A stretch of DNA of 64,000 nt from an uncultured Bacillota bacterium. GTDB taxonomy: Bacteria > Bacillota > Clostridia > Christensenellales > UBA1242. Position 1 is the stretch's first letter. Each line of letters opens with the position of its first letter. The position numbers and the translations under genes were made by a program. This document shows positions 6,499 to 50,155 of this stretch, in pieces. The notes beneath the pieces were generated by a model. That model saw nothing but the letters and a program-made list of their open reading frames with translations, searched no databases and was not told the DNA's origin. Location of the stretch: contig UQVQ01000002.1 of the NCBI GenBank assembly GCA_900544595.1, positions 75,690 to 139,689 on the forward strand, in the 5' to 3' direction.

Positions 6499-6524
6499 TA
6501 AAAAAACTCGCAACTAAGGCGAGT
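6499..6524 (-). terminator. Rho-independent terminator
   Basis: Stem ACTCGC / GCGAGT (6506-6524) followed by a T-run on the minus strand, downstream of 6543..6794. Confidence 0.6.
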
Positions 6525-6542
6525 TTAAATTTAGTTTGATAA

Positions 6543-6794
6543 TTATTCAAAAATCATTATAATTAAAGCAACAAGAAGCATAACAAGCCCTAAAGCCTTA
6601 AGAGTTATGTATAACTTGTTATCGTTGTCAACAGGTTTCGATTTGTCTTTTCTTGCAACCATAGCAATTCGCTTTGCAAGCAAAATAATTGCAAAGCCAA
6701 GAATTGCCAAGATTAACCCTGTTATAACATGTGGCTTTTGAATTCTATCAATTAAACTTGTAAGATCAAGAGCGAGTAACGAAAAATTTAACAT
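6543..6794 (-). CDS. Small membrane protein (83 aa, two TM segments)
   Basis: Two hydrophobic helices separated by a basic loop; terminator downstream. Confidence 0.45.
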   Translation of the reverse strand: MLNFSLLALDLTSLIDRIQKPHVITGLILAILGFAIILLAKRIAMVARKDKSKPVDNDNKLYITLKALGLVMLLVALIIMIFE

Positions 6795-6881
6795 AATTTC
6801 ATCTCCTAACTTAAAATCTAGTTTATTTTAGCACAAAGATTATAAAAAGACAATACCTTTTCGAAAGAAAACTTGGAACTA

Positions 6882-11915: not shown

Positions 11916-12266
11916 TGGTGGAAGCGGTGGGAGTTGAACCCACGTCCGAAAAAGTTTGCAGTGGCTTTTCTACGTGTGTAGTTCGTTTTAATCTTGCCTT
12001 AAATAAGTAACGAACAAAACTTGTTTAAAGCAAATCCTTGTTTTTTTCTTTCAAAAACTTTAAGGCGAAGCTTTTGAAGTTCCCTGCGAAAGTTTGATGC
12101 CCTTTGGCAAAAATGCAGGAATTTTTGCTAAGGACAGTTGCGCTAACTAAGCAGCAACAGCAAGATTTCTATTATCTGCGTTTATTTTGTTTTCCGTTTT
12201 ATGGCAACCGGCTGCCACACGCTTTTTCCCCTCAAAATCTTTTCCGTCGAAACCAGTTACGCCCCC
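11916..12266 (-). ncRNA. ssrA: tmRNA (SsrA)
   Basis: 5' GGGGGCGTAACTGGTTTCGACGG and 3' GGACGTGGGTTCAACTCCCACCGCTTCCACCA form the tRNA-Ala-like acceptor with a G3:U pair. The tag ORF ends ...ADNRNLAVAA-TAG (12147-12179). Lies directly downstream of smpB. Confidence 0.9.
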
Positions 12267-35357: not shown

Positions 35358-35744
35358 CTATATTTTATCACCATTAAAGATAATGTCATTACCAACATTT
35401 ATTTCTTCAATTAAGTTCTTTTTTTTATAAAACCAATCTTTTTCATTTGTATATCTATCAGAAATATAATTGATATTTTGATTTAATGAACCAACTAATG
35501 CTCTATCGTTATCAATTTTCTGCTCATCAAAATAACCATCAATGATGATATCACATTGACTTTTTAAATTATCTTCAATTTCATTTAATTGATATCCCGT
35601 AAAAAGAATTATGCCTAATTCCAAATTTTTAACTTCTTCAAGTAGTTTAACTAAACCGGTTTGTAAGAGTGGTTCCTCCTCTCTGATACTGATTTTATCA
35701 ATGATATTTCGCAATAGCCAGCAATGAACACTTGCATTGCGCAA
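35358..35744 (-). pseudogene. 5'-truncated NrdG-like (anaerobic RNR activase / 4Fe-4S single-cluster radical-SAM) gene fragment
   Basis: ...EEPLLQ....LLEEVKNLELGIILFTGYQLNEIEDN....CDIIIDGYFDEQK.......GSLNQN aligns by eye with the T4/E. coli NrdG C-terminal two thirds (GGDPL...WTGY...DVIIDG.Y....RGS.NQR). The N-terminal CxxxCxxC segment is missing, and the fragment abuts the tet stop codon. Confidence 0.55.
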
Positions 35745-35748
35745 GACG

Positions 35749-37668
35749 TTACATTATCTTCTGAAACATATGGCGAACCTTATCTAACCGACTATTTGGG
35801 CGGCGAGGTTGTACTACAGGTTCCCCTGAAGTTTCCTGATACCCTTTCAATTCTGTCAAGCAAACGCTTCTTCCATTTGTATAGAAATTCAAATCACTTT
35901 TGTATTCCCCAATCCGTCTTGCTGGTATTTCTCCAGTTAAGATCGCTTCATTATTTTTTATTGAAGTTGTTTCAATTACCGCATCGTATTTCACAGCATC
36001 ATGATAAGCCCGTGAAAGATATTCCTGCGGTGCAAACAGGGTAAAAGAAAGATAGGGTTCTAAAACCTGTGTTCCTGCTTTTTTTAATGCCAGTTCCAGC
36101 ACAATGGGCGCAAGAAAGCGGAAATCTGCCGGAGTACTGACCGGGCTGTAGTAAACACCATATTCAAAACAAATTCTGCAATCTGTTACCTCCCATCCAT
36201 ACACTCCCTGCTCTAATCCATACCGAATCCCTTCCATAACTGCGTTTTGAAAGCTTTGGTTTAAATAACCGAGAGGCACTTTACTTTCATATTCTGTTCC
36301 GCTTCCAACAGGAAGAGGAGTGACAGCCAAACCAATCGACGCCCAAAAGGGATTTGGCGGTACTTCAATATGAATTGTATAATGAGCCTCTTTTCGTGGT
36401 CTCTCCCGATAAATAACGGTAGGCTCTTTTATTGCTACCTCGACACTATATTTTTCATTTAATAAAGAACAAACAACTTCCAATTGTACTTTTCCCAAAA
36501 AGGAAAGAATAATTTCATGAGTAATAGAATCAATCATAAAATGCAGAAGCGGATCAGTATCCGCAATCTCTGTAAGGGCATCCAGTAATGCTTCCCTTTG
36601 CTCTGCTTTGATTGGCTCTATCGTTGTCCGAAAAAGCGGCAGGGGATTATCCGTCCATGCCTTGCGTGGCAATAGTTTTTCATCTCCCAGAACATCATTT
36701 AGTTTTAATGTATTGTCAGATAAAATAACAATCTCCCCGGAATCAGCGGTGTCTGTTGGGACGATTTCTCCATCAAATGGAATTGACATCTCTGTAATTT
36801 TAATTTTTTCCTTTTTTGACAGAAGAATCGTTTCCCGTAAACAAAGCGTACCGCTATACAGCCTTAAATAGCAACGTCGTTTTTTCTGCTCGGTATATTC
36901 AATTTTAAAAACATACCCGCACAGTTCCGATTGACAGTTATCTGTTTTCGATGAAAAAATATCTGTGATTACATCAAGCAATTTTTTTGTTCCGATATTC
37001 TCTTTTGCGCTTCCATGATATACCGGAAAAAAAGTTCCCTGCTGTACCCTTCGCTTTATTTCTTCCTGAAGTTCCCGCAATGTCAAAGGCGCTCCTGAAA
37101 GATATTTTTCTAAAAGATTATCATTCCCGGCAATCACAGCATCCCACTTTTCAAAATCCGCAACGTCGGAAAGTGTTAATTCTGGAAATAAATGAACTTC
37201 CTGCATAACCATCATATCTTCTGTCAATTTTTCTCTGATATTTTGATAAGTCTGTGCAGGAACAAAGCCTTCCTGATCGATTTTATTGATAAAAATAATG
37301 GTTGGTATCTTCATCTTCCTCAGCGCATGGAACAGCACTCTGGTCTGTGCCTGTACTCCATCTTTTGCAGATATTACTAAAATCGCTCCGTCCAGAACCG
37401 ATAAAGAGCGGTACACTTCTGTTATAAAGTCCATGTGTCCCGGTGTGTCTACAAGATTCACTTTGTACTCTTTCCAGTGAAAAGATGTAACGGCAGCCTG
37501 AATGGTAATTCCCCTTTGACGTTCCAAAGCCATAGAATCCGTTCTTGTTGTGCCTTTATCTACATTGCCCGGTTCCATGATTGCCCCGCTTGTATACAGC
37601 AAGCTTTCTGTCAGTGTTGTTTTTCCTGCATCAACGTGTGCAAGAATGCCAATATTGATTATTTTCAT
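35749..37668 (-). CDS. Tetracycline-resistance ribosomal protection protein (Tet(M)/Tet(O)/Tet(W)/Tet(32) group; allele not assignable without a search)
   Basis: 639 aa. [30 protein letters not shown]...[23 protein letters not shown]...[56 protein letters not shown] is nearly collinear with known Tet RPPs. The segment is visibly GC-richer than its surroundings. Confidence 0.95.
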
Positions 37669-37998: not shown

Positions 37999-38274
37999 TT
38001 ATTTATTTGTTCTAGGGAACGTCTGTTTGTCTACTTTACAACTTACAATCCCCTCTAATGGATAAATCCCTGTTGTGATATACTCATAATACTCGTTAGG
38101 TGACAACTTTGCCAACTGCCATTGATATCTGCTATTATTATAATAATCCATCCAGTCATCCACGATTGCTTTTACCTCACGATATTTGCTACATTCACTA
38201 ACATCTATCTCATCCTTCATATGTCCAAAAAAGCTTTCCTGTGGTGCATTATCCCAACAGTTTCCTTTCCGGAA
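37999..38274 (-). mobile_element. IS3-family transposase 3' remnant (last ~90 codons only)
   Basis: Reading frame gives FRKGNCWDNAPQESFFGHMKDEIDV...YYNNSRYQWQLAKLSPNEYYEY. This is the conserved RKGNC.DNA..ESFF..LK.E ... L..LSP.EY C-terminus of IS3/IS150-type OrfB. No N-terminal part or inverted repeats were seen. Confidence 0.75.
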
Positions 38275-39434
38275 ATAATCTCACCAGAATCCTCATCAAG
38301 ATTTTCTCTTATTTGTTTAGATATTTCTTTCTTCTCATTTTCAAGTTCTATAAGTTCTGGATTAAACTGAATTTGGTTTAATTCATCAATAATATTTCCC
38401 AAATCCATTCTCATAATTCCATTAATGTTTGATGTTTTGAAATATGTTTTCTTTCTAATTATGTCATTAATATCACTACTTAATTTTTCTAAAACATCTT
38501 TCTTAAACTCATTCTCATCAATAGTAAAATTATAGTTTCCAATCTTTTTAATCAAAAACTCATAATCATTTTTATTATTCTCTATTATAGAAATTTCTTT
38601 TCTGTAATTACTGATTTGTTCATTCAATAATTTCTTATTGTTTTCATGAGACGATATCTGATTTTTTACACTATCAATTTGAACTTGCTCTTTCAATAGT
38701 TTTTGATAATCCAATTTTAACTTTTGGAATTCTTCATCAAAGTTTTCTTTTGTCGCTGTGAAATTTTCAAATGATATTATTTGCTTATCAATTTTCTGTG
38801 AAATATTTATGTAAAAATTATCCACAAGTCTTTCTGGATTGTAATCTGTATTTTTACCATTAATGTTAGGTATCAATCTTAATGGCCTTATTTCTGGGAT
38901 TTTTGGCAATCTATCAAAGACATTATCAATGGCTTTATGAGTTTCGCTTGATACCAATATTTTTTTGCCTTTTTTTGTTAATTGAGCAATTATTTCAGCA
39001 ATAACTTGTGTCTTACCCGTTCCCGGTGGACCTTGCAATAAGAAAATACTTTCACTAGCAACTGCTTTTTTAACAGCTTCCTTTTGTCTATCATTTAAAC
39101 TTTGCAAATTCCATTCAATATCATCTTCTATATTGTGGTTAAGATTTTGTAATGACTTTGGCTCAAACAAATACCTTGACAAATAAGGATTTTTAACAAA
39201 ACCTTTGAAGAATGCGTCCAAAGATTTTTCTTGTCTTTCAATCTTCATTTTTTCTGCAATATTATTATATGTCATAAAACATGGCTTAATATTTTCAAGT
39301 TCTTTTCTTACTTCATCAACACTATTCTTTTCAATTTTAAATAGTATGTTAAATCTTCTAATTGTTTCATTTTCTATTGCTTTATTTATTTTTTCATTTT
39401 TAATATTTAATAGATACTCTTTTGTTTTAAACAA
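38217..39434 (-). pseudogene. Superfamily-1 (Upf1/DNA2-like, AAA_11-type) helicase fragment, 3'-truncated by the IS3/tet insertion
   Basis: Walker A segment LLQGPPGTGKTQVIAEIIAQL followed by KILVSSETHKAIDNV. The coiled-coil-like insert then breaks off near 38275-38290, where the frame runs into the IS3 remnant. No motifs III-VI are present. The frame is open upstream to 39566. Confidence 0.7.
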
Positions 39435-39523
39435 CTCTAAATTAATTTGATTGTTATACTTGTTTTTTAGTTCTTGTGTCTTTGATATTCTCGCTTTATT
39501 GATATTCTCATTTTTTTCTTTTT

Positions 39524-40795
39524 CTAACTTTTCTGCAAATTTTTTGCATTTTTCTTCATTTTTTTGTCAGAAATATCATTTTTTTCATTAAATTCTTTAA
39601 TTTTATTATTTTTTTCTAAATCAAGTTGCAAAGATAAGTCATCTAAATACTCATGAACTTCATCATTAATAATGTTGTTATATTGAGTTTCAACTTTGGC
39701 TTTATCATTCAAGTAATCGTTTTCAAATTCTTTTTCATACTTATCTGTGTTTGGTAAAATATCTTCTGCAAAAATTTTATATCTTTCATCTAATTGAATT
39801 GATTTTATTCCTGTTTGATTATTACTTGGTTCTTGTGCTGTTAAAGAAATGTCCTGTCTAGTAAATCTATTTAATAGTAATTCTTCTTTTGGTTTTCTAT
39901 CTTTTTCTGTCATAGCAGAATAAATTTCTTTTTTATTAAAGTCAACTTCAATGCTTACAAGTGGAAAACTCTCTGCCCCATCAACATTTTCAGTTATAAC
40001 AATTTGGTCATCTCTAACAAGTTCTTTATTTAATAATAATCCACTATATCTTTCTTCATTAAGTCTATAAACATTTCTAGGAATAATAAAAGTATTTAAT
40101 ATTTCACATTTATTAAATCTAATACATTTTTCAGATTGTGCTTCTAAATATTGTTTTCTAAATAATATATAATCTTTCCATTCTTCATAAGTTTGTAATA
40201 CTTTCTTATATTGTTTTACATAGAAAGGACTATTGACTAATCTATAAATAAAATCATTTGTTAAAACATTGCTTGCTGAATATTCATCAATGTTAACACC
40301 AAAATTGGGAACCTTAATTCCATTTGGAAGAACTTTTAATTCAAAAGCAACTGAACAATTACATTGAACACTTATCTCACTAACTTTATCTTCAATTTCA
40401 TCTATAAGTTCAATACCTTTAACGACAAACAAATAGTTTTTAAGACATTTTATATCTCCAATGATAATAATATCTTGACCTTCTGGTAAGAACCTTTTTA
40501 TTAAGGTATCCTTTTCTGGCCTTATGACAACATTTCTATAAATGTAATTTCCCTTTTTATCGCATTCCGCCCTTCTATCAAATGCCGGCATTGAAAAATG
40601 ATATATATTGGTCTTGTATGGGTTAAAACATTGATTCATAAATTCCTTAAAATTTTCAATAGTTGCCTTTTGAGTGTTTCCCATTTTCCTATAAATATTT
40701 GAATATTGCTCAACTAATGATGTGGAAAAATAGTCATCCCAATTTTGACTCCCTTTAACCATATTAAATGTGCAATCTAAAAATAAAAAATTCAT
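39524..40795 (-). CDS. Unknown ~420-aa protein; probably the N-terminal part of the downstream helicase gene, split by a frameshift
   Basis: GGAGGG RBS 5 nt before the ATG at 40795. Its 3' end overlaps the open frame of 38217..39566 by ~40 nt. Inserting one A in the A7 tract (39559-39565) would fuse them. Confidence 0.5.
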   Translation of the reverse strand: MNFLFLDCTFNMVKGSQNWDDYFSTSLVEQYSNIYRKMGNTQKATIENFKEFMNQCFNPYKTNIYHFSMPAFDRRAECDKKGNYIYRNVVIRPEKDTLIKRFLPEGQDIIIIGDIKCLKNYLFVVKGIELIDEIEDKVSEISVQCNCSVAFELKVLPNGIKVPNFGVNIDEYSASNVLTNDFIYRLVNSPFYVKQYKKVLQTYEEWKDYILFRKQYLEAQSEKCIRFNKCEILNTFIIPRNVYRLNEERYSGLLLNKELVRDDQIVITENVDGAESFPLVSIEVDFNKKEIYSAMTEKDRKPKEELLLNRFTRQDISLTAQEPSNNQTGIKSIQLDERYKIFAEDILPNTDKYEKEFENDYLNDKAKVETQYNNIINDEVHEYLDDLSLQLDLEKNNKIKEFNEKNDISDKKMKKNAKNLQKS

Positions 40796-41316
40796 CCTAT
40801 CCCTCCAACACGACATTTGTCAATACTAACCCATTTGCATTATAGCATATAATCAAAAGATTATCTTACTAAAATAAAAAAATCATCAACTTGTGTTGAT
40901 GACCAAAAATTTCTTTTTTCATGCAACACAAACAATGGAGCTAAATCCCATATAATTGAGTTACATACTTATAATTTTATCTATCTGGACTGTAGACCCG
41001 AACTTATAATACTCTCAAGGAAAACGAATACTATAAGATTTATAAAATGTAATTATATTAAATTATGTGCATTAGTTGACCTTCTTACCTGATATCCCTT
41101 GAAATATCTCATCACAACTCTATTATGCAAGAATAGAATAACAAAAACAATATTTTTTGTCAAGTATTACAAGGATTTTTTAATTTTAATTTTTCATTCT
41201 ATTTCGAATATAGCGCTCTCGTGTGTTCATCATTTGAACACGCGGGAATATTTTTATGTAAAAAATTTACCAACTCCAAGAGTTCAGCGTTTGAACTCTT
41301 CAAAAAAATTTACAAG

Positions 41317-41440: not shown

Positions 41441-41626
41441 TTATTTCTTTTCTTCCCATTTAGAACAAGCTCCATTCATGCAACCTTGGTTTCCATTTCC
41501 TCTTGATTTAATTTTGCAAACGTGTGTGGAACCTTCCCATTTCACAGAACTTCCTTGTCGTTGCGAATTTCCTCCAAAATGCTGACAAGTACAACAACAT
41601 TTTTGACTTACTGGTGTTGAATTCAT
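41441..41626 (-). CDS. Small Cys-rich protein (61 aa, 7 Cys, CCCTC motif)
   Basis: AAGGAG RBS; 27 nt after the GmrSD-like gene. Cys at positions 10, 11, 12, 14, 37, 49 and 53. No family recognised. Confidence 0.5.
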   Translation of the reverse strand: MNSTPVSQKCCCTCQHFGGNSQRQGSSVKWEGSTHVCKIKSRGNGNQGCMNGACSKWEEKK

Positions 41627-41653
41627 TTTTTAACTCCTTTTAATATACATATA

Positions 41654-43516
41654 TTATTTTTTAAATATAAACTTTGTTATTCTTTCTGCCACATTATTTG
41701 TCTCATTTTCTATATTTCCTTTATCCCATATTGGTTTTTCAATATTTTTATATTTTATCGCCAAGTAAGACGCCATTGGGTAATGGCTGTCTGCATAACA
41801 AAACTTTCCATCTATTGAATGGTGGACTTTAGTTCTAAACCAATCGTTACTTATAGACCTATTTATTTTTTGTTCTAGTAATATCTTATTTCCTATTTTA
41901 TTTACTATTTCATCAAACTCGTCTTTATCTTTTATATTGGCATCAATTTGTATTGCATAAATATTATGTCCACTAGCAGGCATTATGTGCTCTATATCAT
42001 ATTTATCATTTAAACTAAATTCTAAATGTTTTTCCTTAGCAAAAATAAATTCATTTAAATATACCAATAAATTTTTATCATAATCAGTTATATTTAATTT
42101 TATATCTTCTTCTTTCCAGTTAGAACAAATATGATTATTAAAATCTTCTACTATTTCAGAAATTGCGATACTATTGTTTAAGAACTTAACAGATTCGCCA
42201 AATAAAAACGTTTTAAAATTTTTACTTGAATAGCCGGCATCAACCAATTCTAGAATTACAAATAATCTCAACATAGTTTCTGAAAGTAATTCAACATTAT
42301 TTTTATCCAAAATATGGTTAATAAACCTATTAAAATAACACCCTAAAAATAATTTTGCGTTTTCGTTGAATTTTAATAGAATGTTTACAATTGGCATTTC
42401 ACTAACTTGGCTCCAAATTTTTGCAAGTGCGAGCATCTCGGTACAAGTCTTAATAGGGTTATCTATCAATTCTTTGTTTATTGCTGTAAAATATCTTCTT
42501 ACTCCCGGCACTGTAACATCAATAGACCCTGTTGATGTAACTACTTCATTATTTTTAGCTCTAGTAAGATACATATATTGCATTAAAATAGAATCTATGT
42601 CTAATATATTTTTTGCTGATAAAGCGTTCACAACATCCAATAATTCTTTCCAAATGTTAGAAAATTCACCATCTTTATTTAATCCTTTAGAAGTTGCGAA
42701 CAATTTTGCCGAAATTATATCCGCATCGCTTAATGGCATACCATCTGAGTTAAGAGAATTAAACATTGTTATAGCTTGTTCAATATTCCAACTTTTAATT
42801 TCAATGACTTCACATTTTTCAATTATAGTTTTTGCTATATTATTTACTTGACTACTATCTAATTCTTGTAATTTACCATAGAAAAACTTAAAATTTTTGA
42901 AAAAATTAGTATATATATTATCTTTTTGTTTATATTTTATTTTAAATACTTCGCGTTGTGCATCATCGTAATCTACAGCCTGCAGTATCCTATTTAACTC
43001 TTTTTTATATTCATCATTTTCATTATTTGATTTATTGATAAGAATATTTAATTGACTATAAAGTTTTTTATCTTCTTCTACATTTGGTTTTTCAGAAACA
43101 TCTTCAACTTCAGCATTATATAAAATATTTAAAATGGTTTTTCTACGATCTTTTAAACCTCTTAACAAACTACTAGACTCTTCATCATTTTCGCTAATTC
43201 GGCTAAGTAGATTATTAATATTTATCAGTAAAGCTTTCAGTAATAGTAAAAATGTAGTTGTTCTTTGTTGTCCATCTATTAGTTCATATAATGTATCTTT
43301 ATCATTACAACTAATAATGATTGTTCCAAAGAAATAATTATCTTTACCTTTGTTCTCTTTCTCTGAAAAATCGACAATATCTTGCCAAAGTTTATCACAA
43401 TTTTCAATTCCCCAAGAATATGGTCTTTGATATTCTGGTATTACGAATACTGCATCATCATCTAACTTTAAATATTCTCCAATTTTTCTTAATTTTGGTT
43501 CTATGTTTTTTGCCAT
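41654..43516 (-). CDS. GmrSD-family type IV restriction endonuclease (DUF262 + DUF1524)
   Basis: N-terminal IPEYQRPYSW and DGQQRTTT (DUF262/ParB-like NTPase). C-terminal DIEHIMP ... IGNKILLEQKINRSISN (DUF1524 His-Me finger). Confidence 0.85.
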   Translation of the reverse strand: MAKNIEPKLRKIGEYLKLDDDAVFVIPEYQRPYSWGIENCDKLWQDIVDFSEKENKGKDNYFFGTIIISCNDKDTLYELIDGQQRTTTFLLLLKALLININNLLSRISENDEESSSLLRGLKDRRKTILNILYNAEVEDVSEKPNVEEDKKLYSQLNILINKSNNENDEYKKELNRILQAVDYDDAQREVFKIKYKQKDNIYTNFFKNFKFFYGKLQELDSSQVNNIAKTIIEKCEVIEIKSWNIEQAITMFNSLNSDGMPLSDADIISAKLFATSKGLNKDGEFSNIWKELLDVVNALSAKNILDIDSILMQYMYLTRAKNNEVVTSTGSIDVTVPGVRRYFTAINKELIDNPIKTCTEMLALAKIWSQVSEMPIVNILLKFNENAKLFLGCYFNRFINHILDKNNVELLSETMLRLFVILELVDAGYSSKNFKTFLFGESVKFLNNSIAISEIVEDFNNHICSNWKEEDIKLNITDYDKNLLVYLNEFIFAKEKHLEFSLNDKYDIEHIMPASGHNIYAIQIDANIKDKDEFDEIVNKIGNKILLEQKINRSISNDWFRTKVHHSIDGKFCYADSHYPMASYLAIKYKNIEKPIWDKGNIENETNNVAERITKFIFKK

Positions 43517-43525
43517 AATCTTCTC

Positions 43526-44506
43526 CTATTCATATCTTTTGTTTATTTGTTTGACTATTTCTTTTATCTTATCCCTTGTGTCTTTTGGGGATAAAAGTTC
43601 TATATCTTCACCATATTGTAAGCACCAATAGATAAGTGAAGTTTCGTTTGCTGTTATATCTGCAAATATTGAGTTTTCTTTTTCATAAAGACTAGCATTT
43701 TTACCAAACCATTCTTCAACATAATTTGCAGCTTCTTCTCTATGAATTTTTACTGTCGCATTTATCGTTTTTGTCGCAAACATATAAATGTTTTCATTTA
43801 CATATTTTGCAATATCTAATCCATTTTCAAAACCTTTAACTTGCGTTACTGGTTTTATTGGTGTGTCTAAAATTTTAATGTTATGTATTCTTTCAAGCTT
43901 GTAGTTTCCTATTTCATCAAAATAATCATAATTACAAACTAAAAAATATTTTCCTTGATTATTTATTAGGCAATATGGGTTAACTTTATAGGGGTGCTTT
44001 TTTGTATTATTGTTTTTATATCCATTTCTAATATAATCAAACTCAATCTGTCTGTTATTTTCAATAGCTTCGTTAATTATATCAACATTATAAAATAGTT
44101 CTTTACTATCAGTTCTATTGAGTTCATCTGCTTTATACACATATTTGTATTGTTTTCGCTGATAAACACTTAAAAATTCTGATAGTTTTTTCGCAAGTTC
44201 TCTTGATTGCTTACTATTTATGCTTTTACTAGAAAATACAGCATCAACCAAAAACCTAATTTCACTTGGCTCAAACTCTCTACTAGCCAGATATGAGCCA
44301 GCATTTGTTTTGACAATGTCATAACCAAAATCTATCAAACTATCAATATTTGTGGCAATAGACTTTCTTTCACAAGTCATTCCATAAATATTGTTTATTT
44401 TAATAACTATATCATTTTGAGATAATAAATGATTTTCATCACTATAATCTCTTAACACTTGTAATGTGTATAGAATAGATAGTTTTTTATTTGATGATGA
44501 TGGCAT
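43526..44506 (-). CDS. WYL-domain transcriptional regulator (BrxR/CapW-like)
   Basis: N-terminal wHTH (LSILYTLQVLRDYSDENHLLSQNDIV...RKSIATNIDSLIDFGYDI). Central WYL-type segment (KVNPYCLINNQGKYFLVCNYD....YKLERIHNIKILD). Confidence 0.8.
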   Translation of the reverse strand: MPSSSNKKLSILYTLQVLRDYSDENHLLSQNDIVIKINNIYGMTCERKSIATNIDSLIDFGYDIVKTNAGSYLASREFEPSEIRFLVDAVFSSKSINSKQSRELAKKLSEFLSVYQRKQYKYVYKADELNRTDSKELFYNVDIINEAIENNRQIEFDYIRNGYKNNNTKKHPYKVNPYCLINNQGKYFLVCNYDYFDEIGNYKLERIHNIKILDTPIKPVTQVKGFENGLDIAKYVNENIYMFATKTINATVKIHREEAANYVEEWFGKNASLYEKENSIFADITANETSLIYWCLQYGEDIELLSPKDTRDKIKEIVKQINKRYE

Positions 44507-44521
44507 ATATTCTCCTTAATG

Positions 44522-44842
44522 TCAATTGGTTCTATAACCACTTCTTCTTAATGTTTCTTGTAATTTTCTTTTGAATTCTCTTTCATCAACCATATCATCA
44601 AGTTTATAATCAAATCTTGCGCCATTGTAACTTGATGAAGAACGAACATCTTTTGCTCCAGCAGTAGATAAAAAGTTTTGTATCTCTTTTTCAGGGTCAG
44701 CACATTTAATTGTATATCTTACTTCGATTTCGCCACCACAACTTCTTCTTATATAAATATTTCTTGCTCCGCTACGCGAAAGTTGTTCTTTAATTTCATT
44801 CTCTGGTTTTTTAAATTCTACATTAATGTTTGAATATTTCAT
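44522..44842 (-). CDS. Hypothetical 106-aa protein with an internal triplication
   Basis: AAGGAG RBS. The three units are PENEIKEQLSRSGARNIYIRRS / PEKEIQNFLSTAGAKDVRSSSS / DEREFKRKLQETLRRSGYRTN. No family recognised. Confidence 0.5.
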   Translation of the reverse strand: MKYSNINVEFKKPENEIKEQLSRSGARNIYIRRSCGGEIEVRYTIKCADPEKEIQNFLSTAGAKDVRSSSSYNGARFDYKLDDMVDEREFKRKLQETLRRSGYRTN

Positions 44843-44885
44843 TTTAATTTCTCCTTTATAATAACATATTTCTTTTTATTTTGTT

Positions 44886-46151
44886 TTAATTTTTTATAAT
44901 TTTTTTTATATCTTCTGAAATTAGCAACTTTTTCTTGTTTAATTCACTTGCTAGTTTGTCTAATGTGCCACGATTTTCAATTAGTATTTGTTTTACTTGT
45001 GCATAACTCTTTTCTAATTCATCATTAATGGATTTGTTTTGAAAAAATTTTTGCAATTCAGACACTTCGAAAGAAAAATACGAAGAACATTTGTCAAATC
45101 CATTTCCAGCATATTCAATGATAATTCTTTTTACCACTTCGACAGCTCTTTCAATATCTGATGAACAGCCAGCATCAAGTGTGCCGTATTTTATTTCAGT
45201 GGCACATTTTCCACCAAGCAAACATAATACTCTATTTTTCATGGATTTAACAGACTGCCAATAGCTTTCATCTCTGTAATATGCTGTAAAGCCACCAATT
45301 GATGAACCTTCATGCCCACCAATAGAAATCATTGTTACACTTTCTGGTTCCAAAATTTCGGCAATCAAAGCATGCCCAGCTTCATGATAAGCAGTTTGTT
45401 CATTGTCCTCACAAGTTCCATTTTTTATTGTTTCAGGAGCATTGTAAATAGTTCTAATACAAGCTCTTATAATATCATCAAACTCAATTTTATCTTTATT
45501 CTCAAATCCCGCATAAATTCCAGCTTGGTTTATTATTGTTTCAAGTTCCGCACAAGACCTGCCATTTAAAATTCGTGCTAACTGCTTAACATCTAGATTA
45601 GCAACTGCATTCTTTCCACTAAGGTAATGCTTGATTATCATTTCAGCATCTATCCCTTTTGGTGCTTTGATTTCAATACTAGTATCAAACCTTCCAGCTC
45701 TTAGCAAAGAATCAGGGACTAAACACAAATCATTTGCGGTTGCAATCACAAATACTTCAGAAGATTTAACATCATCAATACACGATTGAATAGTTACATA
45801 TTCTTCTGCATTCTTATGGTCTTTGTCTTCGTTTGCAAACTTATCAAAATCATCTAACAAAACTAATGACGGAGCATTGTTTTTTGCATCTTCAAAAGTT
45901 TTTTTGATGAATTTAATAAATTCATCATCTGGCAAATTTTTTCTGCAAACATAACATTTTTTACCACATTCTTCAATAAACGAATTAGCAATCAATGTTT
46001 TGCCTACACCGGGTTCTCCATAAAGTAATAAACCTTTTGGAATTTTGACACCCAATTTTTGATACTTATCACTATTTTTTATTACATCACAAATTCTTGC
46101 AATTTCTAACTTAATAGCATCATATCCAATAACCTTTTCAAAACCATTCAT
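44886..46151 (-). CDS. Soluble FtsH-like AAA+ ATPase / M41 zinc metalloprotease (no transmembrane region)
   Basis: Collinear with the FtsH cytosolic part: KIPKGLLLYGEPGVGKT (Walker A), LVLLDDFD (Walker B), VIATAN (sensor 1), LLRAGRFD (Arg fingers), AYHEAGHALI (HExxH), GCSSDIERA (third-ligand region). The ORF starts directly at the AAA module, with an AGGAGG RBS. Confidence 0.8.
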   Translation of the reverse strand: MNGFEKVIGYDAIKLEIARICDVIKNSDKYQKLGVKIPKGLLLYGEPGVGKTLIANSFIEECGKKCYVCRKNLPDDEFIKFIKKTFEDAKNNAPSLVLLDDFDKFANEDKDHKNAEEYVTIQSCIDDVKSSEVFVIATANDLCLVPDSLLRAGRFDTSIEIKAPKGIDAEMIIKHYLSGKNAVANLDVKQLARILNGRSCAELETIINQAGIYAGFENKDKIEFDDIIRACIRTIYNAPETIKNGTCEDNEQTAYHEAGHALIAEILEPESVTMISIGGHEGSSIGGFTAYYRDESYWQSVKSMKNRVLCLLGGKCATEIKYGTLDAGCSSDIERAVEVVKRIIIEYAGNGFDKCSSYFSFEVSELQKFFQNKSINDELEKSYAQVKQILIENRGTLDKLASELNKKKLLISEDIKKIIKN

Positions 46152-46359
46152 ATAATACCTCCTTTGGTTTTCAATTGCATTATACCAAAATGGGTGTACT
46201 AAAAATCGGACAACGATAATGAATTTTTATTTTTTTCGATAACACCTCCTAATCAAAATTTTTCAACACTACATATGTAATGTTTGAATAGTTAGTATAA
46301 ACTGCATAATTTGAGAGAATAATTAACTTAAATTATATTAATCGCGCAAACATTATACC

Positions 46360-46430
46360 ATAACTGATTGAATAATTATATCATTTTGTCAAAGATTTAC
46401 AAATTTTATAATAATAGCTCAATCAGTTAT
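46360..46430. promoter_or_regulatory. 12-bp perfect inverted repeat pair bracketing the putative XRE-gene promoter (candidate operator)
   Basis: ATAACTGATTGA (46360-46371) and TCAATCAGTTAT (46419-46430), with TTGTCA ... TATAAT-like boxes between them. Confidence 0.4.
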
Positions 46431-46471
46431 TTTACATACTCGTTTTAAAATATATGTAAGGAGCAATCATT

Positions 46472-46786
46472 ATGGAAAAAATCACTTATGACGATGTTAT
46501 AACTAGAATGGGGTATTTTAGAAATAAGGCAAATTTGTCTATGAGAGAAACCAGCTTGCAACTAGGATACAACCCACAATTTATGTCCACAATTGAGAAT
46601 AAAACAATAAAATTAAAGGTAAAAACTCTTTTGGAATTTTGTGACCTAGTAGATATTACTCCACAAGATTTTTTCTATATGGGGGAACACTATAACAAAG
46701 AAGATAAAAATGTTTTAGATTTATATAACCATTTAACAGATGATAATAAACAAACAATATTAGATTTAATGAAAAAGTTGAAATAA
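46472..46786 (+). CDS. XRE-family helix-turn-helix transcriptional regulator
   Basis: LSMRETSLQLGYNPQFMSTIENKTIKLKVKTLLEFCDLVDITPQDFF is a typical Cro/C1 HTH. Divergent from the FtsH-like operon. Confidence 0.8.
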   Translation: MEKITYDDVITRMGYFRNKANLSMRETSLQLGYNPQFMSTIENKTIKLKVKTLLEFCDLVDITPQDFFYMGEHYNKEDKNVLDLYNHLTDDNKQTILDLMKKLK

Positions 46787-46846
46787 CAAAAAATAACTCA
46801 ACAAAAATTGAGTTATTTTCTATATAAGTTATTAAATTTTATTTAT
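46787..46846. repeat. Right copy of the ~60-bp direct repeat; also a bidirectional terminator
   Basis: AAAAAATAACTCAACAAAAATTGAGTTATTTTCTATATAAGTTATTAAATTT... Perfect stem AATAACTCAA / TTGAGTTATT at 46791-46816. Confidence 0.8.
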
Positions 46847-46862
46847 CTCTTATACTGAGATT

Positions 46863-47234
46863 TTATAAATTCACCATAATACTTTTTACTCTTGGCATAA
46901 AAACATTGTATATATTCACAAGTTCGTTTGCCACCTTTTCTACATCAAGGTCAAAATCATAATTTGTATAGTTTGTTGTATCAAATCGTGGGTCGTTTAA
47001 TCGGCGAGGGCTTGGTTTTTTGTAATACTTTCCAAATCTACCAATTCTTGTTGCTATTTTTTCGTTATTTCTATCCCAAATAAGTTCATAACCAATTTCG
47101 TTTTCAATCTCTTTTTTATGCGAATAAAGTCTGTCATAAATAGTTTTTGCGGCTATACTTGGAAAAAAAACGCAAATATCTTTTAAATATCCACTTACAA
47201 CTCTTGTGTTTACCATAATTTTATTGAATGACAA
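46863..47234 (-). CDS. DUF4268-like protein, tandem copy A (possibly degenerate)
   Basis: KKEIENEIGYELIWDRNNEKIATRIGRF pattern (E.elG..L.W.r...k..RI), typical of DUF4268 by recollection. About 85-90 percent identical to copy B. Confidence 0.45.
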   Translation of the reverse strand: MSFNKIMVNTRVVSGYLKDICVFFPSIAAKTIYDRLYSHKKEIENEIGYELIWDRNNEKIATRIGRFGKYYKKPSPRRLNDPRFDTTNYTNYDFDLDVEKVANELVNIYNVFMPRVKSIMVNL

Positions 47235-47320
47235 ATCACTTGTTTTACGAACATCAAAATGCTCGCAATTATTTTTATATTTTACAAAGAAATCAGGGTA
47301 ATTTTCTTTAAAACATTGTG

Positions 47321-47755
47321 CTAATTTATCAAAGAAACTCTTCTTATCTTTTCTTTATCTCTCATTTCAGAAACCTCTATTCCTAAAATACTTTTTACTC
47401 TTGGCATAAAAACATTATATATATTCACAAGTTCGTTTGCTACCTTTTTCACATCAAGGTCAAAATCGTAATTTGTATAGTTTGTTGTATCAAAACGTGG
47501 GTCATTTAATCGGCGAGAGCCTTTTTCTGTATAATACTTTCCAAATCTACCAATTCTTGTTGCTATTTTTTCGTTATTTCTATCCCAAATAAGTTCATAA
47601 CCAATTTGTTTTTCAATCTCTTTTTTATACAAATAAAGTTTGTCGTAAATAGTTTTTGCATCTTTATCTCCAAGATACACACAAATATCGTGCAAACAAG
47701 CATAACGGTCAACTCTTACATTTACCATAATTTTACTAAATGTCAAATCGTTCAT
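47321..47755 (-). CDS. DUF4268-like protein, tandem copy B
   Basis: Same family pattern as copy A. Its frame is open upstream to the stop of the preceding 200-aa ORF, and it runs into copy A before a 1-nt deletion shifts the frame. Confidence 0.45.
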   Translation of the reverse strand: MNDLTFSKIMVNVRVDRYACLHDICVYLGDKDAKTIYDKLYLYKKEIEKQIGYELIWDRNNEKIATRIGRFGKYYTEKGSRRLNDPRFDTTNYTNYDFDLDVKKVANELVNIYNVFMPRVKSILGIEVSEMRDKEKIRRVSLIN

Positions 47756-47893
47756 TTTGCGAATATCAAAATGCCCGCAATTATTTTCATATTTTACAAC
47801 AAAATCAGAGTTGTTTTCCTTGAAATATTGTGCTAATTTATCAAAGAAATCTCTTCTTATTTTTTCTTCATCTCTTATTTCAGAAACCTCTAT

Positions 47894-48496
47894 TTATAAC
47901 TCTGGACATATTTTTTCCAATTTTGAAGAAGCTGTTATACCGTGTGGATTTGTTTGTATATCGTTTAAATCTTCATTTTCTCTGTCGTAAATTTCTATAC
48001 CACAATCTTCATATGCTTTTAGCGGATTTTCACGATGTTTTCTGTATCCTAGTGCGTTTAGTTGATTGTTTTCATCTTTTGTTATCCAACAAAGTCGTTG
48101 CTTTGAAATAAGTTCTTTGATTTTTTCAACATCAAGTTTTCCTTCTTTGCAAAGTTTAAGCAGTTTGGTTTTAAAATCAAAAGCAGTCGTCATATGTTCG
48201 TCTACAAAATGTTGATGAACAACTATTTTTGTCCCACCATTTGTTTTAACTGAACTCAACCAATCAAAATCCCTTATGTCTTTGCCTGTCAAACCATAAA
48301 ACTCGTTGTAAGCTTTTACACTTGCTAAATGTTTTGGAAATTTTGATAAAACCCACTCGTCGTGACTTGCTCTATCAAATATCCACTTGTTCGCAACTGT
48401 TGGATTATGAACCATTGCTTGGGTATAATCTAGTAGCATTTTGCACCAAGTATCAAAATCCTCTTCTTTATTCATAAATTTTTCGTTCGTATTCAT
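47894..48496 (-). CDS. Hypothetical protein (200 aa)
   Basis: AGGAGG RBS before the ATG at 48496 (MNTNEKF...). No family recognised. Confidence 0.5.
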   Translation of the reverse strand: MNTNEKFMNKEEDFDTWCKMLLDYTQAMVHNPTVANKWIFDRASHDEWVLSKFPKHLASVKAYNEFYGLTGKDIRDFDWLSSVKTNGGTKIVVHQHFVDEHMTTAFDFKTKLLKLCKEGKLDVEKIKELISKQRLCWITKDENNQLNALGYRKHRENPLKAYEDCGIEIYDRENEDLNDIQTNPHGITASSKLEKICPEL

Positions 48497-48566
48497 AATT
48501 CTTTCCTCCTTTTTGTATATGAAATATGTTATAAAAATTCTCAATTAAAACAAGTAAATTATTTTA

Positions 48567-49010
48567 TCATACATTTTTATTCTTAAAATCTCTTATTTTG
48601 TTTAATGTTATTTCACATCTGTTCCCACCAAAATACTTAAATAATAAATTCTTTAATATTGGTAATTTTGTTACTTCGTAAAATAGAGTTAATGAAGAAC
48701 AAAATTTTATTGAATCTATAAATCCCAATATTTCATAGATAGTAAAGTCTTTTAAATTTAACAAAATATTACAACATTCCAAATATCTATCCCACAAAAT
48801 TTTGTTTTTCGCATATGCCACCGCTTCTTCTATATTTTCAATTCCATAAATATTTGAATATTCACTTCTTCCAAGGCCCTTTAATTGTGGGAATATATAC
48901 CAAATCCAATGTGTTTCCTTATAACCATTTTTTAATTGTTTGATAACATCACAATAAATTTCATTTTGTGCTTTTATAAACCTTTCCAAATTATATTTAT
49001 CATTCTCCAT
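48567..49010 (-). CDS. DUF1810 family protein
   Basis: LERFIKAQNEIYCDVIKQLKNGYKETHWIWYIFPQLKGLGRSEYSNIYGIENIEEAVAY matches the DUF1810 signature (F..AQ...Y......G.K.SHWMW.IFPQ..GLG.S). Confidence 0.75.
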   Translation of the reverse strand: MENDKYNLERFIKAQNEIYCDVIKQLKNGYKETHWIWYIFPQLKGLGRSEYSNIYGIENIEEAVAYAKNKILWDRYLECCNILLNLKDFTIYEILGFIDSIKFCSSLTLFYEVTKLPILKNLLFKYFGGNRCEITLNKIRDFKNKNV

Positions 49011-49022
49011 CAAAACACCTGT

Positions 49023-49484
49023 TTATTGTTTCAAATTTGCAAAAGGCAACTGTCCATATTTGTTTTTAAATTCACACAACAATTCTTTTTTTACTTTTTC
49101 AGAATTTTCACACTTCATATACCATATATGCAAGTCTTCATAATTTTGTATTTGTCCAATTATTCTACCACCGAAGGCAGAAACATTTTTCCCACCCCAA
49201 AACTTGAGATGTTCCAAGACTCTTTTGTAAACAGTTTTAGATTCGCTTTTCCCAATATATAGAACATCCGCATCCTTCAACCATCTGTTTTGCAACTCAT
49301 CAATGGAAACAGCGACTTTTCTATCTCTCCATATCTCTAAATTAACAGCCTCGTTAAAATTTACTTTTCCAAAATCACTAGGAAGAACAATAATATAAAC
49401 TCCATAGTAATTTCCTTTGCTCTCGTTCAAATCTCTCAATGTTCCGCCAAATTCAAAATCTCTATCAAAAAATCTTTTAATCAT
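49023..49484 (-). CDS. Possible GIY-YIG-superfamily nuclease with a ~40-aa insertion
   Basis: GVYIIVL ... VLYIGKSE ... YKRVLEH ... KKELLCEF ... PFAN fit the GIY / YIG / Arg / Glu / Asn order. By-eye assignment only. Confidence 0.4.
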   Translation of the reverse strand: MIKRFFDRDFEFGGTLRDLNESKGNYYGVYIIVLPSDFGKVNFNEAVNLEIWRDRKVAVSIDELQNRWLKDADVLYIGKSESKTVYKRVLEHLKFWGGKNVSAFGGRIIGQIQNYEDLHIWYMKCENSEKVKKELLCEFKNKYGQLPFANLKQ

Positions 49485-49753
49485 TTTTTAATCTCCTTAA
49501 AAAAACAATCTCCTTGCTTTACCTTATATTTTAAGATTAAATCTATCAATTCTCTCAAAAATAAAATCATGTTTTTGTTTTGTAGGCGTTTTGTAAAATG
49601 CGTGATACTAGGAGTATTTACTCCTTTTTCTAAGCACCTTTCACACAAACACCATCTCCCATGACAATGATATTTTTTGTAAACGATTTCAAAATCTTCT
49701 AATTGCGGTTCACTAAAAATTTCGCCACAACACTTACACTTATATAGTGGCAT
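49481..49753 (-). CDS. Small Cys-rich (zinc-ribbon-like) protein
   Basis: MPLYKCKCCGEIF...YHCHGRWCLCERC. Stop overlaps the next start (ATGA). The start codon is uncertain (the ORF track extends to 49813). Confidence 0.35.
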   Translation of the reverse strand: MPLYKCKCCGEIFSEPQLEDFEIVYKKYHCHGRWCLCERCLEKGVNTPSITHFTKRLQNKNMILFLRELIDLILKYKVKQGDCFFKEIKK

Positions 49754-49763
49754 ATAAAATGTT

Positions 49764-50054
49764 TCAGTTCTCTCCACTATTTTTCTCCAAAACAGTTGTG
49801 TTCGTTGGTACACTTCCCCCTAGAAGTGGATAGGACTTCATGTAACAACCTTTACCTTTAATTGTAACAATGTCGCACCCATACTCCCTAAGATAACCAA
49901 TATTGCGAGCAATTGTTTTTCTATCACAAGAAATCCCACAGAATTTGCTAATTTGTTCTGCGATTTTTGTTTGATGCAAAGGACAATTTTCCGAACTTCC
50001 ATATTTTAATGCATCATAAACATATAATATAATAAGTTTTTTGTGTTTTTTCAC
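49764..50054 (-). CDS. Stand-alone winged-HTH protein related to the N-terminus of WYL regulators
   Basis: GTG start with a GGAGGTG RBS. LIILYVYDALKYGSSENCPLHQTKIAEQISKFCGISCDRKTIARNIGYLREYGCDIV parallels residues ~9-66 of the WYL regulator at 43526..44506. Confidence 0.5.
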   Translation of the reverse strand: MKKHKKLIILYVYDALKYGSSENCPLHQTKIAEQISKFCGISCDRKTIARNIGYLREYGCDIVTIKGKGCYMKSYPLLGGSVPTNTTVLEKNSGEN

Positions 50055-50155
50055 TTACACACCTCCACTATTTCAATTATATCATACCACATGAGACAAA
50101 AAGGACGCATATAGTTCTAAAAAAACTTAAATTGGTTTCCATCTTATACATTTCT

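Follow-up and report, generated by a model that had tools for sequence, protein, structure and literature searches.

The subject of this analysis is a five-gene operon on the minus strand of a 64,000-nucleotide stretch of DNA (hereafter, the window) from an uncultured Bacillota bacterium of the Christensenellales. The operon encodes a soluble FtsH-like AAA+/M41 zinc protease, which we call FtsHl, a small basic protein (p106), a regulator with WYL and WCX domains, a GmrSD-type nuclease, and a cysteine-rich protein of 61 amino acids (Cys61). The best overall explanation, to which we give a somewhat better than even chance of being correct, is that the operon belongs to a regulon marked by a palindromic promoter element, the WYL box, with FtsHl at its core and the nuclease as exchangeable cargo. 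WYL regulators control both defence systems, as do BrxR and CapW, and DNA damage regulons, as do DriD and PafBC, and to our knowledge the operators and regulons of the WYL proteins of Firmicutes have so far remained undefined. The whole analysis is computational; the loci with which the window was compared come mostly from metagenome-assembled genomes, and their neighbouring genes were called as longest open reading frames (ORFs).

A preliminary description of this DNA had proposed six ORFs in the region, and all are present at the positions and on the strands that it gave. FtsHl (421 amino acids; 44886–46151) is the first gene of the operon and is followed on the same strand by p106 (44522–44842), the WYL regulator (326 amino acids; 43526–44506), the GmrSD-type gene (620 amino acids; 41654–43516), and Cys61 (41441–41626), a basic protein in which the reported seven Cys residues are found. 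The domains ascribed to the protease, the WYL protein, and the nuclease were likewise recovered by Pfam. The gaps between the five genes are 43, 15, 9, and 27 nt, as described, and a ribosome-binding site, AAGGAG or AGGAG, lies 6–9 nt 5′ of every start codon. Some 100 nt past Cys61, folding predicts an intrinsic terminator consisting of a hairpin and U-run (41350→41316), with a ΔG of −15.4 kcal/mol and a z of −5.9, none of 200 shuffles being as stable; inside the operon, the terminator scan returned nothing but one weak match within the GmrSD gene. Because of the gaps, the ribosome-binding sites, the lack of a strong internal terminator, and the terminal hairpin, the five genes are read as one tightly packed operon with a single promoter region, in agreement with the preliminary description, and they are predicted to form a single transcription unit of ~4.9 kb that starts near 46172 and ends at the terminator at 41316. 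The sixth ORF, a divergent gene of 104 amino acids (46472–46786, plus strand), is considered further below.

The tight packing conceals a mosaic, and to label the five genes as one “system” would mislead. We retrieved 80 species-level FtsHl loci, plus further contigs via exact-protein look-up; judged by sequence, 42 of the 80 have a WYL gene, five have GmrSD, three the divergent XRE-type gene, two Cys61, and one p106. It is the sharp DNA junctions against four of the relatives that lead us to regard the operon as a mosaic with two swappable slots. Where FtsHl is 98% identical (locus L001), similarity to the window extends only over 46237→43562, at 94.7%, and a GIY-YIG gene stands after the WYL gene. 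L003 is similar over 46795→44829 as well as 44518→41175 and differs in nothing but the p106 slot, which is occupied by an unrelated 79-amino acid “VDYGEDVK” repeat protein (p79). L082, similar over 46791→44531 and 44516→43595, adjoins Cas9 and has the order FtsHl-p106-310 aa-WYL-PDDEXK_4, with an extra gene of 310 amino acids and with PDDEXK_4 instead of GmrSD, and L086, similar over 46214→44842 and 44518→43511, has the order FtsHl-p79-WYL-GmrSD_N. The GIY-YIG gene of L001 and the PDDEXK_4 gene of L082 fill the nuclease slot, replacing both GmrSD and Cys61. These comparisons point to two exchangeable slots, one for a small protein and one for a nuclease, that surround FtsHl and the WYL gene. 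The preliminary description had taken the five genes to be a fixed module, but every component other than FtsHl and WYL is exchanged or absent in close relatives. Of the co-occurrence that it expected among homologues, the linkage of FtsHl to the WYL gene was borne out, together with a shared operator, whereas p106, GmrSD, Cys61, and the XRE-type gene are not fixed partners.

The occupant of the nuclease slot in the window combines GmrSD_N (E = 1.5e-32, residues 18–273) with GmrSD_C (1e-12, residues 496–611), that is, the DUF262 ParB-like NTPase and the DUF1524 His-Me finger nuclease that characterize GmrSD and BrxU, and the motifs IDGQQRTT and YDIEHIMP are present in its translation. It is matched by the PADLOC models HEC-06, Orf5, and the SspE N-domain, and SspE alone among solved structures is matched by its sequence (1.5e-3). 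It is a putative type IV restriction nuclease, and the earlier proposal that WYL and GmrSD form a type IV restriction cassette appears plausible. Among the closest relatives of FtsHl, a restriction- or defence-type nuclease (GmrSD, GIY-YIG, or PDDEXK_4) always follows the WYL gene, and related loci often lie among defence genes, such as Cas9 in L082, UvrD in L086, and nSTAND, HNH, and ArdA-like genes in L091.

All 21 WYL genes that lie within 1 kb of FtsHl are on the FtsHl strand. The density of WYL genes near FtsHl is 1.45 per 10 kb, compared with 0.04–0.27 beyond 2 kb, and a WYL gene is found within 3 kb of FtsHl in 20 of the 47 fully flanked loci. The WYL-linked loci are spread over several clades of the FtsHl tree, and pCY186, a Butyrivibrio plasmid, likewise has the pair, its FtsHl being 37% identical. 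On these comparisons, FtsHl and a co-oriented WYL gene are a recurring pair in gut Clostridia.

The second line of evidence is the promoter. An alignment of the DNA upstream of FtsHl revealed the block TTGTCCGATTTTT(A/G)GTAC...TATAAT in six loci, including L001 and L086, whose upstream DNA is otherwise unrelated. In the window, the palindrome, TGTCCGATTTTTAGTACA, occupies 46212→46195 at the usual position of a −35 element, followed by the extended −10 element TGgTATAAT (46187→46179) of the proximal promoter, P2, from which transcription is predicted to start near 46172. The family consensus of the box is TGTCC-N8-GGACA, with TGTCC, TGTAC, TGTGC, and TATCC as half-site variants. A first scan with a spacer of 7 nt gave nothing over background, the correct spacer being 8 nt, with which 15 exact copies were found in 1.22 Mb, compared with 1.0 in shuffles that preserved mononucleotide composition. 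Two further results are independent of the shuffles. The distance between the end of the palindrome and the −10 hexamer is 10 nt in 35 cases, as against 0–8 cases at each other spacing between 4 and 16 nt, and no −35 element was found 16–18 nt from the −10 of the box promoters. Furthermore, 18 of 77 FtsHl genes are preceded by the box, compared with only 27 of the 883 remaining genes of these loci (odds ratio 9.7, p = 8e-10). Of the FtsHl genes for which no box was detected, some are internal to operons, and others may have diverged boxes.

Several of the box sites serve divergent promoters, and the box is by no means confined to FtsHl. It precedes WYL genes (L010, L018, and L033), the AAA671 genes that head AAA671-FtsHl-ClpP-like operons (L070 and L074), genes for DUF2779, RNase_T, phosphoesterase, and phosphatase proteins, p106 in L101–L104, a WYL-PDDEXK_4 operon without the protease in L105–L109, and, in L088, a “solo” FtsHl surrounded by housekeeping genes. 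Because the box travels with WYL genes whether FtsHl is present or absent, the WYL protein is the obvious candidate for its binder, and most likely is that binder; the palindrome lies, as in other members of the WYL family, in the promoter of the regulator's own operon, with or without FtsHl, where binding is predicted. As the WYL protein is encoded in the operon that it would control, it is probably autoregulated. FtsHl, for its part, is regarded as an output of the regulon because it stands downstream of the box more often than any other gene, and does so also at loci without a nearby regulator (L030, L088, and L091). On pCY186 of Butyrivibrio proteoclasticus (L081; NC_014390.1, 118816–136048), six promoters of the form TGTGC-N8-GCACA + 10 nt + TATTAT were observed within 17 kb; these variant boxes stand before WYL, before FtsHl, and before genes that lead to DnaX and to a polymerase of the PolC type, an arrangement that suggests a WYL regulon carried by the plasmid, replication genes included. 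In the window, the copy at 46212→46195 is the only genuine one; another candidate, at 15851, falls within an ORF, has a spacing of 9 nt, and was treated as chance.

In the WYL protein itself, the WYL domain (1.2e-10, residues 141–211) precedes the WCX domain (3.4e-7, residues 247–320), as expected of the family. No match to any domain of helix-turn-helix (HTH) type was returned by Pfam; the first 75 residues, which are conserved across the family, are 42% identical (E = 1e-13) to a 96-amino acid ORF with a weak HTH_11 match. That ORF (49764–50054, minus strand) is itself a remnant of a second WYL-type winged HTH (wHTH) regulator in the same island. The single WYL sequence found no match among solved structures, and a family profile, built from 24 FtsHl-linked WYL proteins, was needed to reach DriD and PafC. 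Against solved chains, this profile gave 3e-7 for DriD, collinear over WYL-WCX, 3e-3 for PafC, 0.016 for PafB, and 0.18 for BrxR, while CapW was undetected. The analogy to BrxR and BrxU that the preliminary description drew is weakened by these values, and also by a promoter geometry that is that of the activator class.

DriD of Caulobacter crescentus, the best structure match, is a wHTH-WYL-WCX protein that shares the WYL-WCX part, and probably the N-terminal wHTH as well, with the regulator of the window and is of similar length (331–347 residues in the solved chains and 326 here). It is known as a homodimeric activator that is triggered by single-stranded DNA (ssDNA), and its regulon includes the damage-induced endonuclease gene bapE. 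A 2026 cryo-EM study places DriD sites over the position of the missing −35 element, at a constant distance to the −10, in promoters that lack a −35 (PMC13004042), and the box promoters share all three features. The differences are that the box is TGTCC-N8-GGACA here and ATACGAC-N7-GTCGTAT in the case of DriD, that the hosts here are Firmicutes with a consensus −10, and that the DriD regulon as described lacks an AAA+ protease, the commonest target here; an ssDNA ligand and activation would be carried over to the present protein by analogy.

The PafBC/Pup-proteasome system of Actinobacteria likewise has a WYL regulator that is genetically linked to an ATP-dependent proteolytic machine. At the proteasome locus, the pafBC genes share an operon with pafA, and the proteasome later clears the repair proteins that damage has induced (PMC5656591, PMC6789036). 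After DriD, the WYL profile finds its best PDB matches in PafC and PafB. PafBC is, however, a heterodimer that recognizes a non-palindromic motif at −26 and acts by sigma adaptation, whereas the box here is palindromic, and its proteolytic partner is a Pup-dependent 20S proteasome with Mpa rather than the single-chain FtsH-like enzyme of the window, where there are no pupylation genes.

FtsHl comprises the Pfam domains AAA (6e-21), AAA_lid_3, and Peptidase_M41 (1.1e-19), and over residues 4–420 it is collinear with the soluble part of FtsH from T. thermophilus (PDB 2dhr, 3.7e-44). Its alignment to FtsH_fam begins at position 161 of the 598 in the profile, and the N-terminal membrane region of FtsH is therefore missing; the N terminus is a mere 3 residues ahead of the AAA module. 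No transmembrane helix is predicted, the most hydrophobic 19-residue stretch reaching only 1.27 on the Kyte-Doolittle scale. The late profile start and the lack of a hydrophobic segment identify FtsHl as a cytosolic paralogue, without the two transmembrane helices flanking a periplasmic domain that anchor FtsH in the membrane. It scores 203.4 bits against the TIGR01241 FtsH equivalog (cut-off 600), 123.5 bits against PRK10733 (cut-off 1008), and 68.9 bits against NCBIfam IteA_antiphage (cut-off 510), and because these scores are far under the curated cut-offs it is assigned to neither the FtsH nor the IetA family.

In an alignment of 29 FtsHl sequences that are 51–92% identical to the window protein, the Walker A motif GxxGxGK, the sensor-1 residue N140, and the arginine fingers R151 and R154 are invariant. 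The M41 zinc site, consisting of H256-E-A-G-H260 and the third ligand D332, is also invariant and aligns to the motifs of FtsH, in keeping with the preliminary description of a transmembrane-less FtsH paralogue in which Walker A, the arginine fingers, HEAGH, and the third zinc ligand are intact. Two unusual features are equally invariant in the 29 sequences: Walker B is D100-D101, with Asp replacing the usual Glu, and the pore-1 loop keeps its aromatic residue, F78, has lost its Gly, and is 4 residues shorter. Canonical FtsH (HflB) therefore shares with FtsHl the collinear AAA+ and M41 domains, Walker A, sensor-1, the arginine fingers, HEAGH, and the Asp ligand, but has a membrane/periplasmic module, a DE Walker B, and a pore-1 Gly, in place of which FtsHl has no such module, DD, and the shorter loop.

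A word-indexed protein search gave thousands of FtsHl matches, of which the best 120, from which sizes were read, are all of 417–460 amino acids except for one fragment of 308. Relatives are encoded in at least 444 genomes (one genome per species), nearly all of them from uncultured gut or rumen Clostridia. A phage or prophage origin was considered and rejected: phage genomes contain only canonical FtsH-like matches of <30% identity, and a scan of viral contigs found four weak AAA matches only, although this is a soft negative, one of the two peptide patterns being generic. Two arrangements around FtsHl deserve mention in their own right. In Christensenellales-type loci, an ORF of 43 amino acids, MRKEI(I/T)(D/E)YAKTITK..., overlaps the FtsHl stop codon by 4 nt (L014, L021, L022, and L038; also at 10263–10394 of L095), such that it is translationally coupled to FtsHl, and is usually followed by a 450-amino acid protein with an RNase_T domain; it is possible that this ORF encodes a small partner or adaptor of FtsHl. 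One subclade of FtsHl (L052, L056, L057, L059, L060, L070, L072, and L074) belongs to another conserved operon, in which three genes for proteolysis or unfoldases are clustered: a 670-amino acid AAA + AAA_lid_6 ATPase (SpoVK/CbbX-like) is followed by FtsHl, a protein of 264–296 amino acids, and a ClpP-like protein of 185 amino acids, with a box-like promoter at its head in L070 and L074.

Both of the small ORFs of the window are, on the evidence of their relatives, genuine conserved gene families above chance. The basic protein p106 (pI, or isoelectric point, 9.3) had been described as triplicated, but it has two full α-β-β units and then a third helix only; repeats R1 and R2 resemble each other with z = 7.7 and R1 and R3 with z = 5.1, while the similarity of R2 to R3 is not significant. 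No family match was found in Pfam, PADLOC, NCBIfam, or PHROGs. The family comprises 53 clusters, almost all of exactly 106 amino acids, with one form of 174 amino acids that has an extra repeat. A single-sequence model of p106 was poor, with a predicted local distance difference test score (pLDDT) of 61.7, compared with 87.9 for an alignment-based AF2 model, to which Foldseek matched nothing in either PDB or BFVD (best template modelling score about 0.3). A conserved linkage of p106 to the protease, which had been set beforehand as a test of the proposed module, did not emerge, as p106 also occurs without FtsHl. It is found at the end of an FtsHl-WYL-GmrSD_N-GmrSD operon, after GmrSD and with its own box (L101), after a solo GmrSD with no protease (L102), and, at 60% identity, directly after a 278-amino acid Nmad3 gene (L097–L100, around 6162–7321). 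Nmad3 is nucleotide modification-associated, and the small element of L097–L100 also has a REP_ORF2-G2P rolling-circle initiator, an integrase, and HEPN_AbiU2. The alternative occupant of the slot, p79 (L003 11309–11548, L050 880–1119, and L086 11334–11573), has about five “xVxYGEDVK” repeats unrelated to p106; MKYS or MRYS is the start of both proteins, and the junction of the recombination falls among the first 14 nt of the gene.

Cys61 is a rare family without a domain match in Pfam, made up of five clusters with invariant Cys residues, and an exhaustive profile search found ~7 small proteins among 1.84 billion representatives. A homologue with 70% identity is divergent from a box-driven, protease-less DnaB_C-like-WYL-PDDEXK_4 operon, and Cys61 thus appears from its gene contexts to travel with WYL-nuclease cassettes. 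Small Cys-rich proteins with the motif CxxCx(Y/H)(W/F)GG, which resembles that of Cys61, were observed in L009 (11310–11528; 72 amino acids, directly after FtsHl) and L041 (69 amino acids, directly after WYL), and Cys_rich_CPCC domains in proteins of 214–240 amino acids between WYL and FtsHl in L028 and L035. A wider Cys-rich family that would unite Cys61 with these was considered and is at most tentative: Cys61 resembles the proteins of L009 and L041 only weakly (E = 0.004 over a stretch of 27 residues), and the profile search found only the few relatives mentioned. Both p106 and Cys61 could be adaptors, substrates, or nucleic acid binders.

The divergent gene had been described as an XRE regulator. 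A divergent gene is indeed present, but its matches to XRE-type HTH domains are weak (HTH_19/HTH_26 at 1.4e-3 in Pfam; PADLOC HTH_VI at 5e-6) and it is not part of the conserved unit. It is found in L002, L003, and L082 and is absent upstream of FtsHl in L001 and L086. An inverted repeat at 46360–46430, with 20-nt arms that are 85% complementary and a perfect core, AACTGATTGA / TCAATCAGTT, brackets the best minus-strand site of the promoter scan, a putative second promoter, P1 (46402→46375; TTGTAA-16-TATAAT with TG). The repeat is conserved only in the loci that carry the XRE gene and is a candidate XRE operator. The XRE gene, P1, and the repeat together appear, from this distribution, to be a lineage-specific extra layer rather than a part of the conserved unit.

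How might such a regulon work? The arrangement of the genes, their domains, the swapping of cassettes, the linkage of FtsHl to WYL, and the box at its constant spacing were observed; in the scheme outlined here, we infer what binds the box, whether it activates or represses, the triggering by ssDNA, and all protease substrates. The WYL protein would bind, as a homodimer, the box that P2 carries exactly 10 nt 5′ of its −10 hexamer in lieu of a −35 element. Binding of ssDNA, arising from DNA damage or from phage or plasmid replication, by the WYL domain would then turn the promoter on, as in DriD and PafBC. The output would be threefold: the soluble FtsH-like AAA+ zinc protease, presumably a hexamer and, across gut Clostridia, the regulon member that is best conserved; the regulator itself; and an exchangeable cargo, in this case the GmrSD nuclease with the small basic p106 and Cys61. 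Most partners of FtsHl are enzymes with DNA or nucleotides as substrates (GmrSD, GIY-YIG, PD-(D/E)XK, DUF2779, RNase_T, metallophosphoesterase, and HD), and further examples are Macro, ADP-ribosylglycohydrolase, HAD_SAK_2, and fragments of Y-family polymerase and Pol III. It is this preponderance, taken with the precedent of PafBC and the proteasome, that leads us to propose that FtsHl most likely limits the lifetime of the co-induced DNA-cutting enzymes, of the regulators, or of both, acting as a timer or safety device. Alternatively, it could act directly in anti-phage proteolysis.

As to the sign of regulation, a DriD-like activator triggered by ssDNA is modestly favoured by analogy, because the fixed distance to the −10 and the missing −35 resemble DriD promoters. 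Several observations weigh against this scheme. With −10 elements that are near-consensus and in several cases TG-extended, the promoters could fire without an activator, with the box serving as a repressor site; BrxR and CapW, the only WYL regulators so far characterized beside defence genes, are both repressors and are listed as such in the recent DriD study (PMC13004042). An architecture in which the WYL protein is a repressor of the BrxR/CapW type, the box occludes a strong constitutive extended −10 promoter, and stress de-represses two independent defence genes, one protease-based and the other GmrSD, is for these reasons a possibility to be taken seriously, if well short of an even chance. 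It accommodates the consensus TATAAT hexamers with their TG extensions, the overlap of the operator with the promoter core, and the precedent of the defence-associated repressors BrxR and CapW (PMC11662680, PMC9122601). A repressor needs no fixed phasing, however, whereas some 35 sites are phased at strictly 10 nt in promoters with no −35, as for DriD, and the relationship of the WYL profile to DriD and PafC is significant, while BrxR is reached only at E = 0.18 and CapW not at all. The activator scheme faces further points: binding, induction, and proteolysis by these proteins are predicted from sequence alone; the DD Walker B and shortened pore-1 loop make processive unfolding by FtsHl uncertain; the box shuffles were mononucleotide only; and the sequence surveys place WYL near only about 45% of FtsHl genes, such that the link is frequent and not obligate, and detect a box directly upstream of only ~23%. 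Finally, partners in L081 and L095 are replication or repair genes, and the label “defence” may be too narrow. This last point opens on another explanation, compatible with immunity and of some, if rather low, likelihood, in which FtsHl and WYL form a replication or repair programme of mobile elements or of the chromosome and the GmrSD cassette is incidental. The boxes of pCY186 precede WYL, FtsHl, and the operons of DnaX and PolC; among the genes of L095 are RNase_T, Macro, a Pol III α fragment, and HAD_SAK_2, and a Y-family polymerase adjoins L086; and DriD and PafBC both control DNA damage regulons. Set against these are the nuclease that always follows WYL in the closest relatives, neighbours that include Cas9, UvrD, nSTAND-type, and ArdA-like genes, and the finding of no close relatives in the phage genomes and viral contigs searched.

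The remaining alternatives concern what the protease is for and how fixed its company is. The preliminary description favoured one dedicated, unnamed defence system of five genes and XRE, with the protease as sensor or abortive infection effector and with p106 and Cys61 as obligate parts. Tight packing, one promoter region, and one terminator fit this idea, as does the lack of a match to any named system, and the order FtsHl-small gene-WYL-GmrSD-Cys61 does recur in L003 (93% FtsHl identity) and L050 (71%), with FtsHl-p79-WYL-GmrSD_N in L086 (70%). We nevertheless judge it improbable: GIY-YIG replaces GmrSD and Cys61 in L001, where FtsHl is all but identical, and PDDEXK_4 does so in L082; p79 replaces p106, which itself occurs with solo GmrSD or Nmad3; a Cys61 homologue stands beside an operon without the protease; and XRE is absent from L001 and L086. 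Least probable of all, in our estimation, is that FtsHl degrades XRE or WYL on receipt of a signal and so switches the nuclease on, in the manner of CapP/CapH or ImmA/ImmR. There is precedent for the control of immune operons by a metalloprotease paired with an HTH repressor (CapH/CapP, cited in PMC11662680), XRE is divergent in the window, L002, L003, and L082, and FtsHl-WYL is a conserved pair. XRE is not conserved, though, the position of FtsHl as the commonest gene downstream of the box, even where no regulator is nearby, marks it as an output, and an ATP-dependent M41 protease is unrelated to the CapP/ImmA type.

The regulon interpretation, with FtsHl as output and the nuclease as cargo, has no counterpart among named systems, as the preliminary description had surmised: searches of PADLOC, NCBIfam, PHROGs, and Pfam gave only generic AAA/IetA, WYL, and GmrSD matches and none to the gene combination, and full-text literature searches turned up no paper connecting a soluble FtsH/M41 protease with either WYL regulators or phage defence. 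IetAS, from the study of Gao et al. in 2020, reportedly pairs an FtsH-like AAA+ ATPase, IetA, with a separate subtilisin-like protease, IetS. It resembles the present case in combining a classical-clade AAA+ with a protease, and the AAA domain of FtsHl matches the PADLOC IetA models at 4.5e-24, though through the generic AAA core only. In FtsHl, by contrast, the M41 domain is fused and the protein cytosolic, while IetA is reported to have an FtsH-like extracellular domain (PMC10924106); the IteA_antiphage score falls far under its cut-off, and no IetS-like S8/subtilase partner was found among the operon and island genes scanned or the annotated neighbours of the homologues. BrxR/BrxU of the pEFER island and CapW provide WYL repressors beside defence genes, including those of the GmrSD family, and as here the regulator is in its own operon; the differences are the lack of a significant WYL profile match and, in the present case, the protease-led operon and activator-like geometry. 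Of the BREX core genes pglZ, brxC, and pglX, PADLOC and Pfam detected none in the operon or island, the sole trace being a BrxC match of 0.0041 from a generic AAA domain. In these terms, the operon would belong to a WYL-controlled stress or defence regulon with an uncharacterized soluble FtsH paralogue at its core, a defined operator, and interchangeable nucleases.

The surroundings of the operon had been described as a tRNA-adjacent AT-rich island. An AT-rich stretch does extend from 38 to 52 kb (GC 0.25–0.33), but the tRNAs lie at 33.7–34.1 kb, and an RNase_T gene, a Tet(M)-like gene, and an insertion sequence (IS) remnant come between. The second of these (35749–37668, minus strand) encodes a 639-amino acid ribosomal protection protein of the Tet(M)/Tet(O) type, with GTP_EFTU and EFG domains II–V, is likely to represent acquired tetracycline resistance, and stands beside a Fer4_12 fragment (35358–35744) and an RNase_T exonuclease gene (34265–35341). 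A 73-amino acid C-terminal transposase remnant (37999–38220, minus strand) abuts a helicase fragment of 405 amino acids (AAA_11; PADLOC MkoA at 1.8e-32, covering the middle of the model only), which follows a 430-amino acid protein without a family match (together 38217–40816, minus strand). This looks like a second, IS-truncated defence-type locus, perhaps Mokosh-like, just past the operon terminator and absent from L003. The 430-amino acid protein and the truncated MkoA-like helicase were considered as operon members and rejected, the similarity of L003 ending at 41175 and the terminator intervening. On the other side, comparison with L002 reveals an insertion of 3.3 kb (46795–50152) between the XRE gene and the HTH_3/DUF3990 genes, which contains tandem DUF4268 fragments (46863–47234 and 47321–47755) similar to the C terminus of PADLOC PDC-S11, unassigned proteins of 216, 153, and 110 amino acids, and DUF1810. 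Elsewhere in the window there is an ordinary transfer-messenger RNA gene (11916–12266, minus strand; tag peptide ADNRNLAVAA) that is unrelated to the operon.

The box, as a cis-element of strict geometry, could be used to map the WYL regulon across hundreds of uncultured gut Clostridia, and its commonest output, FtsHl, represents a large uncharacterized family of cytosolic FtsH paralogues. The loci also constitute a natural cassette exchange series, in which the same protease and regulator are found with GmrSD, GIY-YIG, or PD-(D/E)XK. A bolder reading, which we put forward only tentatively, is that FtsHl, a DriD-like WYL protein, and the box promoter are the core of an unrecognized modular conflict system of gut Clostridia that is triggered by ssDNA, with FtsHl as effector or timer. 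Were this so, FtsHl would either degrade phage or host targets as effector or, as timer, make self-toxic nucleases such as GmrSD, GIY-YIG, and PD-(D/E)XK safe to keep, and the system would be a Firmicute counterpart of the PafBC-proteasome axis that has been recruited for immunity. Should FtsHl limit or execute the response, the connection of proteolysis with WYL regulators that is represented by mycobacterial PafBC and the proteasome would extend to another phylum and to immunity, and this would also explain how inducible nucleases are tolerated without a methylase partner.

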